64,000 nucleotides of DNA from Desulfatiglandales bacterium (GTDB taxonomy: Bacteria > Desulfobacterota > DSM-4660 > Desulfatiglandales > Desulfatiglandaceae): assembly GCA_963662465.1 (NCBI GenBank), contig OY759599.1, forward strand, positions 7,328,001 to 7,392,000, read 5' to 3'. The notes under the pieces were generated by a model. It made no database searches, was not told the DNA's origin, and was given only the letters and a program-made list of their open reading frames with translations. The position numbers and the translations under genes were made by a program. This document shows positions 5,381 to 14,153 of this stretch, piece after piece (position 1 is the stretch's first letter; each line of letters starts with the position of its first letter).

Positions 5381-6430
5381 TCATGAAATCATTGCAAGCT
5401 CCTGAGTTAACAGCCCTAATCCTTTATTGAGGAGTGAGTAAGCAGCTTCAATTTGAGATGGTTGCTCGGCGCCCTTGATAGGTTGCTTTTTGATAACCCC
5501 TGAAATCATTGGGTTTTTGAAATGGAGTTCAGAGCAAATTGAGAGCCATAGCCATTTCCAGCCTGTGTCCGTAACCCTATAGAATGACATGTTATTCTTC
5601 TTTTCGACAATTCCCCGGACCCTCAATTTGTTCATTTCATACCGGATTTGTGCAGGATTTCGAAAAGATTGGGGGAGGCTGTTGAGAAGATCCACTGTCC
5701 TGAAGCCATATGCATGGTATTTTGGCTTTAGAAGCTCTTGGGCCAGGGCGGTCTGACGATCTTTTCTGAAGTCCGGTGGGGTCACGTTGCGGCCAAGATG
5801 ATCTGAGACAGGCTTTTTGTAACGCTCCTCTTCTCCTTCTGAAATAGAGGCGATATCCACATCGGCACAGCATTCTAAAAATCGATCATTACATTCCACG
5901 CCTTCCCAAAGATAGGCCTGTAGATAGAGGACAGGTTTTTTAAGCCCCAGCGATTTGGGGTTATTGATGGTGGTCTCGGTGCGGATGTAATACCCGGTTT
6001 TGTTGTATTGCTTGATGGAGTTGCCTCGGAACCAGTGTTTGATGCACGCATTATTGTCATATAGCCGCCAGAAGGTCTTGGATGTTGATCGGCGATGGAG
6101 CCGACGATTGAAAATCTGAGCAATGGTCTCGGGCAATCCGAGACTGTGGAACTTATCCAAGAGCCTTTCAAAGAGGCTGGTGCAAAAACGCGCGGAACGA
6201 AACACAATATTAGAAGAAACTTCGACCTGGCTTGAATACCAGTCGTGATAAAGGAATTTGGATCGCCCAAGTCGGGTTGACATTTCCTTTGTCGAATTTG
6301 AAGAAAATATTCATCCAGTAGTTGATCCTGTTAAGTACAGCTCTGCCAGTGAGAGACGCAGCGGCTTTTTGAAGGGCCTCTGGATTTTCAACGTCAACAA
6401 ATGCGTTTTCGCTGAGCCTATATTTGATGC
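5381..6430 (-). pseudogene. C-terminal part of an unclassified putative transposase (split by IS; extra frameshift near 6284)
   Basis: Removing 6431-12956 plus one TSD joins LDKQGIK to YRLSENAFVDV. The downstream frame has QVEVSSNIVF, IKQYNK, RTETTINNP and a C-terminal wHTH-like segment. Confidence 0.75.
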
Positions 6431-6619: not shown

Positions 6620-7102
6620 ATGGGAATCACACGCCAAGAAAGAAAAAAACAAAAGGGCAAGATTGGAATTCGCAAGCATCTAAATGCAGACGCAATGCTC
6701 AAACGTTTGCATAAAGATTTTTCGGAGGTGTCTGACTATCGTGAGGATCCCGAAATCCCAATGGCGGATGCACTGATGTCCGGGTTTTCAATGTTTTCGC
6801 TCAAGGATCCCTCATTGCTTGCTTTTGATGGAAGAAGAAAAACCGATAGTAATCTGGCTGGAATATACCATATAGGAAAAGTTCCTTGCGACAGTCAGAT
6901 GCGCACTATTCTTGATGAAGTACTCGCAGAAGAACTTCGGAAACCGTTTAGGAATATCTTCTGGGAACTGCAAAGAGGAAAAGTGCTTGAACGTATGACT
7001 TTTTTCGAAGGATGTTATCTTCTATCTTTGGATGGAACGGGCTTTTTCTCTTCGAAAAAGCTCTACTCTGATAATTGTTTGGTAAAAGTATCGAAAAAAA
7101 CC
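6620..7102 (+). pseudogene. Transposase N-terminal part (ISNCY-like), interrupted
   Basis: Contains LSLDGTGFFSS; ends VKVSKKT at the IS21 junction. Confidence 0.85.
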
Positions 7103-7352
7103 CTTCAACGCTAATCAAAACTGAACCAAGTTTGCTAATGGAAATTGAACCATTGGCTGTCACCGCCAGTGAGTACGGCCCTCAGGTATAGCGGACGATG
7201 AGGGATCCATAAGTGGCGGCAAAGGAGTCGTTGATGTAGATTTACTTTTCAATAAATTTTTATAAAATCTATTTTCTTTGGATTTGGTTTTCTTCTTCCA
7301 AGACAGAGGCTTGGTTAAGTGGAAATGCGATTTACTTTGTAGAATGGATGGT

Positions 7353-7388
7353 GAAGGCCCGAAGTAGCCGCTTCGGGCCTTCTTTTTT
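7353..7388 (+). terminator. Terminator-like hairpin in the IS21 leader
   Basis: Perfect 12-bp stem GAAGGCCCGAAG/CTTCGGGCCTTC followed by T6. Confidence 0.7.
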
Positions 7389-7464
7389 GACCACCGGATA
7401 GAGCCGGAAGCCACACACACGCCAATTTTATATAAGTGTGTTTCCGGCCAATTGCAAGGCCGGA

Positions 7465-7881
7465 ATGATGGGAGATGTCCTTTTAAGAGTGGTTCAATGC
7501 CGATGTTGTGGTTGCTTTTTTCACGTCTGTCGGTCGTGTTGGCGTGGCCAGGCCTATTGTGGGGAACGATGTCGCAGGATACGCCAAAGACAGCTGCACC
7601 GGAAAGCTCAGGGGAAATACCGCAATTCGAAAAAAGGGAAAGAGCGCCGTCGTTTGTACGAAAAAACAAAAAAATCCAAAAAAAATGGACTGAACCCTGG
7701 TGATGATAGTTCAACACCTCAAAAAGACTGTGATATTGAACCCAAAAAGCGGTCGGGGAACCGACCCAGCTGTCTTTTTTGCGGGTCGATCGGGGTTGTT
7801 GTGGACCATTTTCCTCGCCGTGCTTATGCAGGGAGGGTTTTTTCAGATGTAACAGGCTTTGAGAAAACCCCATATCCATGA
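7465..7881 (+). CDS. Cys-rich basic hypothetical protein (putative Zn finger), IS21 passenger
   Basis: CRCC, CRSC, YCGERC and CLFCG motifs; Lys/Arg-rich; first gene of a tightly packed operon. Confidence 0.6.
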   Translation: MMGDVLLRVVQCRCCGCFFHVCRSCWRGQAYCGERCRRIRQRQLHRKAQGKYRNSKKGKERRRLYEKTKKSKKNGLNPGDDSSTPQKDCDIEPKKRSGNRPSCLFCGSIGVVVDHFPRRAYAGRVFSDVTGFEKTPYP

Positions 7882-7893
7882 CAGGAGAAAAAA

Positions 7894-8313
7894 ATGATCA
7901 AAAAAAGAGTCCTTTTTCCCGAAAGAGTGCGTGTCATCAATGGAAGCTTCGGCTTTCTGGAGCATCGTTTTTTGAGAAACGGCTTTTGGGAGAGCCTGAA
8001 TCATCATGAGCTGCTGCTCTACATTTTTCTGGTGTTGGTATCTGACAAAAACGGGCTCTCTTATTATGGTTACGACAGAATCTGCCGGATTTTAAAGGTG
8101 CATTTGGATCAATATATCGATGCCCGCGATGGCTTGTTGGACAAGGATCTGATTGGGTTTGATGGCCGTCTGTTTCAGGTTCTTTCGCTTCCCAGACGTC
8201 CTGTGATTGTGAAACAGGTAAAGGAGATCCGGCAAGGAAATTGGGTCAGTCTTGGAGAAACCATAGAGGAAATCTTTCGGGAGACTGGGTATGGAATCCA
8301 TCCGAACCGTTGA
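7894..8313 (+). CDS. Putative winged-helix DNA-binding protein, IS21 passenger
   Basis: AGGAG SD; LLYIFLVLVSD.NGLSYY...ICRIL resembles replication-initiator-type wHTH domains; overlaps the next gene. Confidence 0.65.
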   Translation: MIKKRVLFPERVRVINGSFGFLEHRFLRNGFWESLNHHELLLYIFLVLVSDKNGLSYYGYDRICRILKVHLDQYIDARDGLLDKDLIGFDGRLFQVLSLPRRPVIVKQVKEIRQGNWVSLGETIEEIFRETGYGIHPNR

Positions 8314-9175
8314 TATTCATTTGCTGGAGTTGCGTTACGCTCATTGCCGGATAATGAATCACCAGGCTTTAAAGCGATTGAGGGATTCCATCGAAACTTA
8401 CGGGCAGATCGTTCCGGCCCTGGCTATTGAAGAAAAAGACAAACTGATTCTGATTGATGGCTACCTGCGTGTTCGAGCGCTTTGTGCTTGTGGAAAGGAC
8501 CGGATATGTGTCCAATTCTCAAAAGAAAACGAACAAAATGCCATGTTTTCGCTTTTAACCAAGGCCAATGAACGGCAATGGGAAGTCATTGAGCAGTCTG
8601 TTTTACTTCAGGAATTACATCGGCGTTTTGGGTGCAGCCTCTCCCATATTGCAACCCGAATAGGGCGCGACAAGAGTTTTGTAAAACGGCGGCTGGACCT
8701 GGTTGAAGCCCTGCCGGAAAATATTTTGAGAACCGTGATTGCAGGCTCACTTTCAACCTGGGCTGCCAGCCGTGTCATGGCGCCGTTGGCGCGCGCCAAC
8801 GGTGAAGACGCACAAAAACTGTTGGCCCACCTGGAAAAAGAACCTCTATCCACAAGGGAACTGGCCCGTTTCTACGCACATTACCAGAAAAGCAACCGGT
8901 CTGTTCGAGACCACATGCTGGAAAATCCATCCCTTTTCATAAAAGTTCTCGAACAAAGAACCCAGTCTAAACAAGCCAAAGAAGTTCATGATGGACCGGA
9001 AGGCAAATGGTTCAAGGATATTGAAATGGTATATGCGGTTCTCAAACGTCTGGTGAAAACCGTTTCGCATGTCCATTACCCAAAAAGCGATCAGTTGAAG
9101 AAACAAACGCTCAAAACCTGGGTGAAAAAGATAGAAAAACAAGCACTGGAACTCAAGAAAGCGACCCAATTATGA
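8291..9175 (+). CDS. ParB/Srx N-terminal domain plus HTH protein, IS21 passenger
   Basis: L.DSIETYGQIVP...LIDGYLRVRA (ParB box) and SLSHIATRIGRDKSFVKRRL (HTH). ATGA overlap with istA. Confidence 0.85.
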   Translation: MESIRTVDIHLLELRYAHCRIMNHQALKRLRDSIETYGQIVPALAIEEKDKLILIDGYLRVRALCACGKDRICVQFSKENEQNAMFSLLTKANERQWEVIEQSVLLQELHRRFGCSLSHIATRIGRDKSFVKRRLDLVEALPENILRTVIAGSLSTWAASRVMAPLARANGEDAQKLLAHLEKEPLSTRELARFYAHYQKSNRSVRDHMLENPSLFIKVLEQRTQSKQAKEVHDGPEGKWFKDIEMVYAVLKRLVKTVSHVHYPKSDQLKKQTLKTWVKKIEKQALELKKATQL

Positions 9176-10554
9176 TCCGACAATCCAAAAAAGATGCCAT
9201 TGTGGAATTGAAAAAAACCGGCATGAGTTTGCGCGACATCGCCAAAACCCTGAAGGCCGGTCGCAATACCGTCACGAAGGTTTTAGATGATCATGACGAA
9301 GAGGCGGTACCCCAAAGGAACTCCCGGTATGAAGAACATGTCCCGTTGATCCGCGAGCTTTTCAAGGAATGTAAAGGAAATGCCGTGCGAGTAGCCGAGG
9401 AACTGGAAAGCCGCCAACAGATCAAAATCCCTTATCAGAGTCTGACCTGGATTATGAGAAAGTACGAGATCCGGGAACGTAAAAAAAGACGGGCGGGCCA
9501 ATACCATTTTAAACCCGGTCAGGAGATGCAGCATGATACGTCACCCCATCTGGTTGTCATTAATGGGAAAAAAATGTCGACCCAGTGCGCGTCCCTGACC
9601 CTGGCCTTTTGCCGAAGGATTTTTATTCAGTATTACCCCTGTTTTACCCGGTTTGAGTGCAAGGTTTTCCTAAAAAAAGCATTCGAGTTTATGGACGGGG
9701 TGTGTTCCCGGTGCATGGTTGACAACACCAATGTTATTGTGGCCGGCGGCACCGGGCCTGATGCATTGATTGCGCCTGAAATGAAATACTTCGGCGATAT
9801 GTATGGAACCCGGTTTGAGGCCCATGCTGTAGGAGACGCCAATCGAAGTGCCCGTGTGGAAAGGCCTTTTCATTTTGTGGAAAACAATTTTCTTCCCGGT
9901 AGAACATTTGTTAGCTGGCAGGATTTGAACCGGCAGGCAATCGACTGGTGCCGGAATACAAGCGATAAAAAGTTTAAACGGGCTTTAGGGATGACGCCGG
10001 ATGAGGCCTATGTCATTGAAAAGCCATATCTCATTGATTTACCGGCATACCAGCCGCCAGTCTATGTGGCAGAACACAGGGTAGCCGATGTTCAGGGATA
10101 TGTGCACTTGGACACCAACCGCTATTCAGTCCCTGAAGCGCTGATTGGGAACTCCCTGGAAGTACAGAAACATTGGCTCAAGGTCATCGTTTACGACAAA
10201 AACACAAAAGTGGCGGAACATGACCGCATACTGGATAAACGCAACACCCGAACAACCCTGCCCGGTCACCATGTTCCCATTCGAAGAAAAAAAGATCCCC
10301 GAATCCCTTCAAAAGAAGAACAGCTGTTGACGGGAGAGGATGCCATCCTGGATGAGTATGTGGCTGAACTGAAGAAAAGAAGTCACGGTCGCGGTGTGGT
10401 CAAGTTACGTCGGTTGCTTCATCTGAAACGCACTTATCCCGGGGAACCTTTTTTGAAAGCCATAACACAGGCGCTTAAATATGGACTTTTTGATTTGTCG
10501 CGTCTGGAAAACATTATTCTCGATTATATCGCGGGAGACTTTTTTGATCTATGA
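9172..10554 (+). CDS. istA: IS21 transposase IstA
   Basis: N-terminal HTH; PGQEMQHD, MVDN and ARVERPF (DDE); NRYSVP. Confidence 0.93.
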   Translation: MIRQSKKDAIVELKKTGMSLRDIAKTLKAGRNTVTKVLDDHDEEAVPQRNSRYEEHVPLIRELFKECKGNAVRVAEELESRQQIKIPYQSLTWIMRKYEIRERKKRRAGQYHFKPGQEMQHDTSPHLVVINGKKMSTQCASLTLAFCRRIFIQYYPCFTRFECKVFLKKAFEFMDGVCSRCMVDNTNVIVAGGTGPDALIAPEMKYFGDMYGTRFEAHAVGDANRSARVERPFHFVENNFLPGRTFVSWQDLNRQAIDWCRNTSDKKFKRALGMTPDEAYVIEKPYLIDLPAYQPPVYVAEHRVADVQGYVHLDTNRYSVPEALIGNSLEVQKHWLKVIVYDKNTKVAEHDRILDKRNTRTTLPGHHVPIRRKKDPRIPSKEEQLLTGEDAILDEYVAELKKRSHGRGVVKLRRLLHLKRTYPGEPFLKAITQALKYGLFDLSRLENIILDYIAGDFFDL

Positions 10555-11270
10555 AAAAGAAAATTGAACAGTTACTCATTGATTTGAAGTTTAAAGGCAT
10601 GCTGAAGGCTCTCGAAGAACAGTTGGCTTCGGCTGAAAAGAACGGTTTTTCCATTCACGAGGTCATCTACAATCTCCTGGCTGAGGAATTACGTTTCCGG
10701 CAGGAGCGCAGCATGATCTATCGGGTCCAGATTGCAAAGCTTCCATGGGAATGGACCCTCAACTCCTTTCCGTTTGATCTTCAGCCGGGAATACAGAAGA
10801 GCCGGATCATGACGTTGTCCGGCCTTGACTTTATCAGCCGAAGAGAAAACATCGTGTTCCATGGAAAAACCGGCGTCGGCAAAACGGGATTGGCCGTGGG
10901 GATCCTTCGTCAAGCCATTATTGCCGGGTACCGGGGGCGTTTTTATAATGTTCAGGATTTGCTGGATCAGCTCTATGCGTCTTTGGCAGATCGGTCCACC
11001 CCGAAACTCCTCAATGCCCTTTGCAGATATGACCTGCTTCTGCTCGATGAACTGGGATACCTGACCCTCAAAAAAGAGCAGATGAACGCCTTTTTTAAAC
11101 TCATGAAAGATCGCTATGAAGCCGGTCGGTCCACAATTATTACGACCAATCTTCAACCTGAACAATGGTATTCGCTGCTTGAACCAAAGGACATGGTCGA
11201 TGCCTTGCTGGATCGTCTCAACCATCGCTGCATCAACATTCATATTGATGGTCCTTCCCTCAGAAAATGA
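10551..11270 (+). CDS. istB: IS21 helper AAA+ ATPase IstB
   Basis: Walker A GKTGVGKT, Walker B LLLLDELGY, IITTN, ALLDRL, GPSLR. Confidence 0.95.
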   Translation: MKKKIEQLLIDLKFKGMLKALEEQLASAEKNGFSIHEVIYNLLAEELRFRQERSMIYRVQIAKLPWEWTLNSFPFDLQPGIQKSRIMTLSGLDFISRRENIVFHGKTGVGKTGLAVGILRQAIIAGYRGRFYNVQDLLDQLYASLADRSTPKLLNALCRYDLLLLDELGYLTLKKEQMNAFFKLMKDRYEAGRSTIITTNLQPEQWYSLLEPKDMVDALLDRLNHRCINIHIDGPSLRK

Positions 11271-11368
11271 GATGTTCGCCAAAGGGCCGGTTTTGAGGTC
11301 TGAATATCACCGGTCTGTTTGAATCTCGTTACACGAATATCAGAAATTACCTTGTCTTGGAGCTTGAA

Positions 11369-11566
11369 ATGAGAGGTGGAAAACGGGTAGGCGCCGGCCG
11401 AAGAAAGAAACCGGAACATTTGAGACGTGAACTGCTCACCATTCGTCTCCCCAAATGGATGATTCTACAGCTGAAAAAAAACGGGGAAATTGGATATTTG
11501 ATTGAGGATCAATTGGCGAAGGGAGGCCTCCTGAATTTACCGGACGACTATGACATAGACAAATAG
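11369..11566 (+). CDS. Small basic hypothetical protein (possible DNA binder) inside IS21
   Basis: MRGGKRVGAGRRKKP followed by LTIRLP (RHH-like strand); GGAG SD. Confidence 0.55.
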   Translation: MRGGKRVGAGRRKKPEHLRRELLTIRLPKWMILQLKKNGEIGYLIEDQLAKGGLLNLPDDYDIDK

Positions 11567-11835
11567 TTCCTCAATAAGCATTGCCCTTAACCGAAAAATC
11601 TAATCCCCTCTTCTCTGCCATCACCATATTGATGGTATCCTCATCACTGATTCTTCAACCAGAACGCTACGTGTCTCACCAGCATTTTTAAAATACCATC
11701 TGATATACTCTTTCATGCAACCTCTAACAAATTTACAAGAAAACCCTTCTAAAAGGAAAAGACCAGTGCGCAATATCTGGTTCCGTTTGGAGTAGCAAAA
11801 CTGGTTCCATTTTGGTTAGCGCCCAAGAAAAAACC

Positions 11836-12708
11836 GGCGAAAAGACCTATTACCAGCAGATGCTGGGGGCAGCGATTGTGCATCCCGATTTCAAAGAGGT
11901 CATTCCGCTTGCTCCGGAATTCATAGTAAAGCAGGACGGCCAAAGCAAAAACGACTGTGAGCGTAATGCAGCGAAACGTTTCTTGAGTAAGCTGAAAAGG
12001 GATCATCCGCATCTGTCTCTCATCATTACAGAAGACGCGTTAAGTTCGAATGCACCCCATATAGAGGAAATACAAAAGCAAAACTTTCATTATATTCTGG
12101 GAGTTAAACGAGGCGATCATCCTTTCTTATTTAATCATGTCGAACAAGCGCGGGTAAATGGTGGCGTTACTGAATTCGAATTGGTCGACAAAGAGGATCC
12201 GGAAAAAACGCATCGCTTCCGATTCCTTAACCATGTACCTCTCAACGCCTCTAACAAGGATGTACTGGTTAACTTTCTGGAATATTGGGAAATTACACCG
12301 GAAAAAACACAGCATTTCAGTTGGGTGACTGATTTTATCATAGAAAAGGACAATGCATACGAGCTGATGCGAGGCGGTCGTGCGAGATGGAAGATCGAAA
12401 ATGAAACCTTCAATACTCTTAAAAACCAAGGTTATCATTTTGAACATAACTTCGGCCTTGGCAAGAAGAATCTGAGTGTTGTTTTCGCGATGCTCATGAT
12501 GATTGCATTTCTGGTTGATCAAACGCAGCAGCTTTGTTGTCCCTTATTTCGAGCTGCATGGCAGAAACTCGGTTCCAAAAGAGAATTATGGGAACGTATG
12601 AGAGCTCTGTTTAAAGATTTTGAATTCAAATCCATGAGGATGCTCTATGAAGCTCTCTATTATGGTGTGAAATTCCAAGCGCCAGTCATTTTGTATGACA
12701 CTGGGTGA
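11836..12708 (+). pseudogene. Transposase C-terminal part (ISNCY-like), interrupted
   Basis: KNDCERNAAKR, TEDAL and GRARWKIENETFNTLKNQGY. Rejoins 6620-7102 in frame to give 451 aa. Confidence 0.88.
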
Positions 12709-12956
12709 ATTTGCGATGTCCAATTTGCATACAAGAGTGCTCTCAATAAAAAATCTGGAGTTTCCGGAAATGGATATCTCTGTCCTGACTCAGATCTTTT
12801 TACGTTCTTTCTCTTCTGGAAAGCCTCAATCTGTGAAAAATCGAAGGAGCCAACAGTGAATTTGGAGTAATCTTCTGAAAAGTTTTTGATCTCACCGTTT
12901 ATTTTTCAAATTTGTGTTACAAACTCGGTGAGTAAATTCCTGAGCGGGAATTGCTG

Positions 12957-13539
12957 ATTTGATGCCTTGTTTGTCGAGCTGGAGTTGAATGGCATTGTGG
13001 CCGTTGAAATAGAATTCTGCACGAAAAGGAAGGTAGGAAGAGATTTTGAGGTAGCAGAGGCCACCGAGAAGGGCATCGTGCAAGTAGATGTAATACTGCT
13101 TCACCGGCTTTCTGCAGTCATAGATTCGTTCATAGGGCTTTCCGGCTTTTGAAGTGAGTTGCCTGCAGGCAAATGTTCTAACCGGTTCTTTGTCCGTAAG
13201 GATGCAAAACACATGGTTTCCTTTTCCTGTAAAGGCCTTGGCGTATTTTTGTTCCACGAATTTTGATTTTGCGCCGTCAGTGCCACCCCCTTCAGAGGGC
13301 CACCAGTGAATGGGGATATTGTTGTTCCGGGCTACCTTTTGAATATGACCATTGAGTTGGTCGGTTAGAATCCTCATTACACCGTTTGACAATCCTTTGA
13401 ATCCGAGAGTCCTGAGGAGCCTGACAATGCCTGCTGGAGAAAAGAGGGAGAGAATGTAGCCTCGAATAATAACCCGATCGAAGCAGAAATATTTGAACTT
13501 GATATTTTCTGAGAATTGATTCAAAAATGAATTCTTCAT
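12957..13539 (-). pseudogene. N-terminal part of the unclassified putative transposase
   Basis: GGAGGA SD before MKNSF; CFDRVIIRGY, KQYYIYLHD, ISSYLPF...YFNGH. Cut at the 9-bp TSD. Confidence 0.8.
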
Positions 13540-13767
13540 GGGTGTATCCTCCGGTGAGGGAATGTTAGCTAAACAATCCATACCGGATCACCCATGAAAT
13601 TTCAAATCAAAGAATGGGATTTTAGGCAGGGGGTTAAGAGACTTCAGGATGGTCAGATGACGCCAAAAGCTTCATCAACTTTAATATCCGGGATTTGCCC
13701 CGGCCAAAAATATAACCATCATGTCATTAGCCCCCTGCCTACAGCCCTTTTCGGAACTTTAGTTTGG

Positions 13768-14153
13768 TAAATATATGAGGCTTTTCCAGAATTGTCCGAT
13801 TCCTGATGGAGCTTTTTGACCCCCGGCATTTTCTCGGCTTCCTTGCTGATTTTGATGCCATCGCCAGCCAATAGCAATCGGCCATCAATCTTAACCAGTG
13901 GGCAACTGGAGAGAACAATTTTCCACCAGCGGTGCATGATGGTTTTCAATTCCCAGGACGATGCTCTGAAAAACCCGAGAAGAGACGTGTAAAACCGAGG
14001 TTCAATGCCCAACCATCGGATAAAAGAGCTGACGCCATATTGGTCCAGCCTGACGGTAAAGCCAAAAATTACAATCACGAACCAGTCAAAAGTTGCCCTG
14101 CGGCTGAAACAGGATCTGAATTGTTCGAGTATCCAACTGATCTCGCTTATCAT
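13768..14153 (-). pseudogene. Truncated IS701/IS4-like DDE transposase (N-terminal ~128 aa)
   Basis: FRSCFSRRATFDWF and LAGDGIKISKEAEKMPGVKKLHQES. Similarity ends abruptly at GKASYIY. Confidence 0.75.

Follow-up and report, generated by a model that had tools for sequence, protein, structure and literature searches.

In transposons of the IS21 family, IstA pairs and cuts the ends of the element and IstB prepares the target (PMC10122671, PMC11208146). ParB proteins are described as loading at palindromes and spreading (PMC7333895), and 16-bp palindromes with a central CG as sites of the parS type (PMC5450999). Here we analyze a 64,000-nucleotide stretch of the genome of a Desulfatiglandales bacterium (contig OY759599.1, positions 7,328,001 to 7,392,000; hereafter the window), in which positions 7103-11827 hold a 4,725-bp variant of the IS21 family, flanked on both sides by the 8-bp duplication AAAAAACC. 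This element appears to belong to a large clade that has its own ParB and parS-like site and no ParA. We propose, with our confidence evenly divided, that the ParB protein loads on the parS-like site and licenses transposition of the DNA carrying that site, in cis.

The element resembles IS21 and IS5376 in several respects. Its DDE transposase IstA (9172..10554, + strand) can be aligned with that of IS5376 (E 3e-27), the invariant residues D122, D184 and E230 falling on the IS5376 triad D124/D187/E233, and its AAA+ helper ATPase IstB (10551..11270, +) scores above the family cut-offs of PF01695 and NF038214; istA and istB overlap, both ends contain two repeats and the target duplication is short and variable in length. 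Against NCBIfam NF033546, IstA reached 129 bits, under the cut-off of 160. Unlike IS21 and IS5376, the element contains two more conserved genes 5' of istA as well as an internal palindrome, and members of its clade measure ~3.8-5 kb. Whereas IS5376 ends in the signature CA-3' (PMC10122671), the ends of this element begin with C. The C-terminal tail of IstA carries a conserved GDFFxL motif (window 10530-10554; G455 and F458 invariant), which is likely to be a docking peptide.

The sequence-only reading had described six co-oriented, intact genes within one pair of inverted repeats, and this description holds, as six frames on the + strand are open between imperfect terminal repeats of ~48 bp. 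Besides istA and istB, they encode a small Cys4 zinc-finger protein that continues into a basic helix (7465..7881, with an alternative start at 7438), a winged-helix (wHTH) protein (7894..8313; HTH_36, below cut-off), a ParB-family protein with a nucleotide-binding domain, a helix-turn-helix (HTH) domain and a three-helix tail (8291..9175), and a product of 65-69 residues, orf6 (11357..11566), for which only a ribbon-helix-helix-like lead was obtained. The overlaps noted earlier are also real, amounting to 23 nt for wHTH/parB and to ATGA for both parB/istA and istA/istB. From these overlaps alone, translational coupling can be inferred, but the claim that it joins a Zn finger/wHTH/ParB module stands only for wHTH and parB, as the zinc-finger gene ends 12 nt before the wHTH gene without overlapping it. 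The orf6 gene starts 86 nt past istB.

The same reading regarded the extra proteins as core components rather than cargo, and had suggested surveying the gene neighborhoods and co-phylogeny of this IstA clade. Metagenome contigs were scanned with an alignment built from 62 IstA relatives out of the 120 listed, and loci were picked by IstA alone, taking the best 80 of 591 confirmed (45-70% identity); six of these, with <300 bp of upstream sequence, were set aside, leaving 74 scorable loci. In all 74, parB lies directly 5' of istA. Close IstA homologs also keep the zinc finger, which was found in 57 of the 59 loci with >550 bp ahead of parB, one of the two misses being a contig start. The remaining two genes fared differently: wHTH was detected in 5 of these 59 loci and orf6 in 1 of the 41 with enough downstream DNA, counts in which a wHTH profile and a single-sequence search, respectively, may have overlooked distant forms. 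Because they are rare at IstA loci and present in unrelated mobile elements, wHTH and orf6 are best classed, on gene content, as conserved proteins but variable passengers. The core as read from these loci is Zn finger-ParB-IstA-IstB, with no fixed three-gene module, so that the earlier claim stood for ParB and the zinc finger and fell for wHTH and orf6. Conservation argues against istA and istB sufficing for transposition in this clade.

Within the same genome, wHTH also heads tyrosine-recombinase elements, at G000:C1:285500-288300 and 3489900-3493000, where its companions are one Cys/His-rich gene and a pair of genes for tyrosine recombinases. The orf6 gene is found in two other IS21 types and in a serine-recombinase element, with homologs directly 5' of large serine recombinase genes at G000:C1:3320600-3325600 and 6823900-6825500, and it appears to move between mobile elements of four kinds in this host. 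The zinc-finger protein has four invariant cysteines and evolves fast; it had no match in Pfam, NCBIfam or PHROG and no atlas family, and the best hit of a fold search (Z 4.3) matched the helix alone. It is present also in ParB-less IS21 relatives, among them a distant Zn finger-wHTH-IstA-IstB element (L247, G264:C1:577788-581780). Ratios of nonsynonymous to synonymous substitution (dN/dS), calculated against three to four relatives at 70-90%, were 0.18-0.26 for ParB, 0.16-0.51 for the zinc finger and <=0.29 for wHTH.

For the co-phylogeny, trees were compared for 52 representatives (<90% IstA identity) drawn from 73 loci with parB, istA and istB intact, and among the 50 core members the tree distances of IstA correlated at 0.87 with those of ParB and at 0.70 with those of IstB. 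Of 29 strong IstA splits, 23 recurred in ParB and 20 in IstB, with 3 and 1 strong conflicts, respectively; at the level of these sequences, the IstA tree is matched by ParB no less closely than by IstB.

A perfect 16-bp palindrome, GTTGGCGCGCGCCAAC, overlooked by the sequence-only reading, lies inside parB at 8785..8800 (codons P165-N170) and is the candidate parS-like loading site. In a blind count of inverted repeats over 25 complete elements, GCGCGCGC came far ahead of any other and was located inside parB in 24. Pairing within the palindrome averaged 7.66 of 8 over the 50 representatives, compared with 5.08 (standard deviation 0.13, maximum 5.56) when the same amino acids were recoded with the codon usage of each element in 2,000 rounds, and at least 7 of 8 pairs were retained in 47 of the 50 against 3.9 under this null, although the 50 relatives are not independent; on the other hand, third positions elsewhere are saturated. 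Of 614 codon columns across parB, istA and istB, genes in which third-position GC ranges from 0.41 to 0.94, none is as frozen as the three of the palindrome codons TTG (34 of 35 Leu), GCG (49/49) and CGC (50/50). Both arms changed together in several lineages (TATGG..CCATA, TATTG..CAATA, CATTG..CAATG, TGTGG..CCACA, GCTGG..CCAGC), sometimes at the cost of amino-acid changes; unpaired intermediates also occur. As a background figure, a perfect 16-mer palindrome occurred anywhere in 86 of 3,000 random 900-bp windows. It is very probable, as predicted from these patterns, that a ParB dimer binds the 16-bp palindrome within its own gene.

A different explanation would be that the palindrome acts as an RNA hairpin, or as a site for IstA, the zinc finger or a host protein, and that ParB is long-kept cargo. 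The stretch in the window can indeed fold as a stable RNA hairpin (-25 kcal/mol), which counts against our proposal, and it codes for a conserved helix. However, the freezing extends to synonymous positions, and the central four bases are self-complementary and switch in step (GCGC / ACGT), which points to double-stranded symmetry rather than an RNA loop, since loop bases cannot pair. The symmetry also ends at 16 bp, the next outer pairs being kept in just 14 and 12 of 50, and Rfam gave no match. Furthermore, the palindrome of neither clade (see below) is present in four ParB-less IS21 loci, the ParB-less, zinc-finger-bearing element L247 has neither, ParB is never missing from the scorable loci, and the palindrome shifts in sequence with the ParB HTH. 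We consider this explanation highly improbable. An mRNA structure described at the 5' end of Caulobacter parB (PMC13371061), as far as that account goes, does not bear on the palindrome.

This joint shift is seen in a second clade, whose IstA and ParB are ~31% and ~22% identical to those of the first and whose elements carry Zn finger-ParB-IstA-IstB together with a CHC2 or primase-like gene. Clade-2 ParB is collinear with that of clade 1 (E 3.8e-17), and a palindrome of 7-8 of 8 pairs occupies the same codon register in 6 of 6 clade-2 parB genes, reading GTTYATACGTATRAAC or GTTYATGCGCATGAAC, with the HTH residues changed together with it. Two of the six genes (L311, L312) were found via the end motif alone, blind to the palindrome. 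The host has a parS-like match near its chromosomal parB, and this differs from the element palindrome.

Lone 16-mers were also sought in viral contigs, where the clade-1 palindrome gave 22 hits and the clade-2 palindrome 19. As 21 of the 22 and all 19 are without an element end and without a ParB-profile hit, a lone 16-mer in a collection of this scale proves nothing. In one small viral contig (L286), a 16-bp palindrome similar to that of clade 2 stands in six copies; no par gene was present among its open reading frames (ORFs) of at least 100 residues.

The site is also kept by elements without genes. The exact 16-mer occurs 26 times in this genome, 25 times within parB and once in non-coding DNA, where it stands 256 bp inside the lone right end of a related element. 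That end (G000:C1:3732981-3733252) has a perfect site and no left end within 43 kb upstream, and the fragment beside it resembles the end of comM. Among 209 genomes of the class, six others contain the 16-mer; nine of ten loci examined lie in parB, and in the tenth it lies 216 bp inside a right end. The remaining viral hit (L178) proved to be a 386-bp element in which the site stands between a left and a right end, flanked by a 5-bp duplication; it had no plasmid match. In genome G316, a search by end motif, blind to the site, recovered a 210-bp element in 11 full copies and a 216-bp sister in two, one with a 6-bp duplication. Both families consist of two ends around TATTGCGCGCGCAATA, a variant known from some parB genes, and between them the site is identical at 16 of 16 bases and the remaining interior at 58 of 88. 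All 14 short end pairs found (209-386 bp) keep the palindrome, one of them with one mismatch. Many single ends (e.g. L180, L186, L196, L197, L199, L256, L261, L265) had no site within 1.5 kb, most of them being truncated by contig ends or other insertions. Because an element without genes offers nothing for regulation and hardly anything to protect, these elements make it rather probable that the site helps the DNA carrying it to move, in cis.

The mini-elements bear directly on the possibility that this ParB is a transcription regulator, loading in its own gene and spreading to repress or activate the operon with the zinc finger as its partner. BisD/bisS of ICEclc, in which an orphan ParB-like clamp of mobile DNA has a palindromic site of its own within coding sequence, offers a close likeness in the account available (PMC12409273), and the palindrome of our element does lie within the operon, ~370 bp 5' of istA. 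A regulator would nevertheless have no work to do on gene-less mini-elements with a perfect site, and regulation could be a second role, not the sole one; as the whole explanation we find it quite unlikely. KorB/OB of RK2, likewise an orphan ParB-like protein on mobile DNA, is reportedly a transcription regulator too and would be a further precedent; unlike BisD and KorB, which belong to large conjugative elements, the site described here is kept on mini-elements of a DDE transposon. Phage Mu has internal cis sites apart from its ends, an enhancer and a strong gyrase site, which aid end pairing and for which the transposase itself or the host's gyrase is the reader. Here, in contrast, the internal site is paired with an element-encoded ParB as its candidate reader.

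It is also conceivable that ParB acts after excision, coating a circle from its site for protection, nucleoid retention, recruitment of SMC or host ParA, or delivery to the target. IS21 is said to use a minicircle (PMC3299598), and retention of the site in mini-elements would be explained equally well. ParB is, moreover, described as recruiting SMC (PMC7333895). Against this, the element is without ParA and its ParB without an N-terminal ParA-binding peptide, a 210-bp circle leaves little room for spreading, and neither target nor strand bias was observed, so that we hold this alternative to be unlikely. No end-to-end circle joint was found in contigs of four public runs, which drop rare forms.

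We therefore return to licensing in cis, which could proceed as follows. IstA and IstB would carry out cutting, joining and target capture, as in other IS21 elements, while a ParB dimer bound to the palindrome within its gene would load there as a nucleotide-gated clamp and then reach the ends, where it may help IstA to load, the ends to pair or the first strand transfer to take place; this action is the least certain part. Movement of the DNA would require the palindrome in cis, as a transposition enhancer or licence that is effective however far away the ends lie (64 bp to 3 kb).

Several observations weigh against this scheme. For canonical IS21, IstA and IstB suffice in vitro according to the published accounts (PMC10122671, PMC11208146). 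The agreement of the ParB and IstA trees amounts to co-inheritance, for which linkage alone is enough. The 14 mini-elements represent two independent lineages; the 11 copies of the 210-bp family are without duplication in G316, a draft genome with 8% contamination in which no clade IstA turned up. One decayed copy of a mini-element is missing the site along with an end repeat, and an end pair spanning 17 kb in G316 has no site, duplication or transposase hit. A retained site indicates aid to spread and does not tell which step is aided. In ParB itself, the catalytic Glu position (Y58) is occupied by Tyr or Phe, Box I has no conserved Gln and Box III is variable, without conserved EN; a survey of the ParB fold states that the choice of nucleotide cannot be predicted from sequence (10.1101/2025.10.10.680097).

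In other respects the protein is a recognizable ParB. Its predicted model has a mean predicted local distance difference test (pLDDT) of 87.6 and comprises a ParB/Srx N-terminal fold, an HTH domain and three long helices, in which a GPEG motif is conserved; the profile matches Spo0J over residues 19-200 (E 5e-15), and Foldseek matches Myxococcus ParB (E 1e-10). Box II, GxxRxxA, is retained, with G57 and R60 invariant and A63 present in at least 90% of 49 relatives. In Myxococcus ParB the catalytic residues are given as Q52 and E93, loss of which yields long-lived clamps (10.1101/2021.05.05.442810); by analogy, as the catalytic Glu is replaced here, a clamp formed by the element ParB may be long-lived. 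Fold, domain order and GxxRxxA are shared with the ParB/parS systems Spo0J, Noc/NBS and Bsr parS of Burkholderiales, as is the kind of candidate site, a 16-bp palindrome with a central CG (PMC5450999). Unlike these, the element has neither ParA (no parA among its six ORFs) nor the N-terminal ParA-binding peptide LG(R/K)GL, absent from all 70 aligned proteins, in the window because the fold begins already at residue 4; it keeps neither the catalytic Glu nor Box III, its palindrome differs from the chromosomal parS and is carried on a 4-5 kb insertion sequence, and its ParB has a helical tail with the GPEG motif. In Bacillus subtilis, too, a parS lies inside the parB gene. A complex prediction of ParB with IstA plus IstB scored 0.16 against a mark of 0.32 and speaks for neither side.

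That the unit moved recently as a whole with a perfect target duplication, as first supposed, is borne out by the genome. The 8.16-Mb assembly contains 21 uninterrupted copies at 99.5-100% identity, four more that are split by other insertions, and fragments. Target duplications flank 19 of the 25 both-ended copies, and two of the remaining six match each other crosswise; among 18 of 23 copies measured, the lengths were 7 bp (9), 8 bp (7), 6 bp (1) and 5 bp (1). Given these near-identical copies with duplications, the element is active and transposes as a whole unit. In the window, the duplication occupies 7095..7102 and 11828..11835 and the element interrupts a host DDE_Tnp_1 transposase gene, whose halves (6620..7102 and 11828..12708, both +) lie outside it and whose uninterrupted 454-residue frame is found elsewhere in the genome. 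Contigs from public runs end exactly at 7103 and 11827, and the empty site was present in two of four runs. Further transposase-like pieces, one IS701-like, lie on both sides (window 5381-6283, 12892-13581 and 13719-14153, - strand), the target region being a nest of insertion sequences. A terminator-like hairpin with a T run (7353..7390, +) precedes the zinc-finger gene, has a similar counterpart in L054, L087, L097 and L132, and probably insulates from read-through.

The left end (7103..7150, +) and the right end (11767..11827, -) both begin with CTT and contain two IstA-type repeats, the right one with an additional conserved TGCGCA at positions 56-61. The termini thus read 5'-CTT...AAG-3', not TG...CA, and the terminal CA-3' dinucleotide that is a signature of IS21 is not found here. 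In the relatives, counted with the first six positions unscored, all 42 left ends and 53 of the 57 right ends start with C, with CT or CC in 93 of 99, and a TG start in three near-identical right ends; duplications back these end positions at 6 of the 35 loci with two ends, metagenome contigs mostly joining the flanks of different copies. We considered C-starting termini as a trait linked to ParB and discarded the idea, as C is likewise the first base of a ParB-less IS21 in this genome, which makes such termini wider than this clade. The TGCGCA motif was likewise considered as a ParB site and is more simply seen as a third half-repeat (spacing 24-25 bp).

A role of the extra proteins in targeting, suggested at the outset, left no sign: 18 duplications yielded no target consensus, and 15 of 25 copies are co-oriented with the leading strand, i.e. 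without strand bias. Copies do lie beside repeated DNA on either flank more often than random points (14/25 vs 71/400, p 4e-5), though not clearly so on both flanks (7/25 vs 55/400, p 0.07), a placement explained as well by selection and rearrangement as by targeting. The distribution of copies could reflect target immunity, with ParB spreading from its site to keep IstB off the element and its surroundings and so prevent self-insertion. How IS21 immunity works is described as an open question (PMC11208146), and none of the 25 copies is nested in another or lies <20 kb from the next, the shortest gaps being 20, 21 and 28 kb. With 25 copies in 8.2 Mb, however, such spacing is expected by chance, and a 210-bp element would gain little from immunity yet retains the site; we regard immunity as very unlikely to be the explanation.

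The clade appears large. At E 1e-30 the ParB profile matched 631 clusters (50% level), counted irrespective of gene context, and of 401 host-phylum genomes six had an IstA match; among the named carriers, taken as binned on short contigs, are Desulfobacterota and one bin each of Planctomycetota and Thermoplasmatales. Viral scans gave no IstA relative, and plasmids no ParB relative at 1e-8. Clade 2 occurs twice in this genome and on a Desulforapulum autotrophicum plasmid, where its genes are annotated singly. The two copies (G000:C1:6813482-6822866 and 8094473-8099500) contain zinc finger, ParB, IstA, IstB, CHC2 zinc finger and orf6, with CTA ends and their own palindrome, one of them holding a nested IS21 of a third type, and L311 and L312, from the phylum of G596, are complete clade-2 elements in which the gene past istB looks primase-like. 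A ParB-less IS21 with a 901-residue IstA, CCCGG ends and an orf6 homolog lies at G000:C1:5957224-5961575 (also near 6.82 and 7.84 Mb).

No paper on an IS21, other transposon or MITE (miniature inverted-repeat transposable element) with a ParB or parS-like site was found in a literature search that covered subscription journals thinly, and the main text of the ParB-fold survey, whose supplements may list such neighbors, is without mention of transposons (10.1101/2025.10.10.680097). The palindrome in parB, its co-variation and the site-keeping mini-elements are new. Whether they add up to a class of DDE transposons that is widespread and is licensed to move by a ParB clamp, encoded by the element itself and loading at a centromere-like site, is, in our judgment, equally likely to be true or false. 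If true, the minimal mobile unit would be two ends plus a parS-like palindrome, and ParB would be a third transposition protein and at the same time a self-recognition code, with orthogonal protein-site pairs between clades. The natural 210-bp mini-element is a ready substrate, on which a single site mutation would decide the need for the site, and new candidate ParB-site pairs, distinct from chromosomal parS, are on offer. The locus would also be a case of coding sequence bent to keep a candidate DNA site of the protein that it encodes. For a family structurally solved as a two-protein machine, there would be a third protein and a third cis site, and transposition itself would join segregation and transcription among the roles of ParB clamps.

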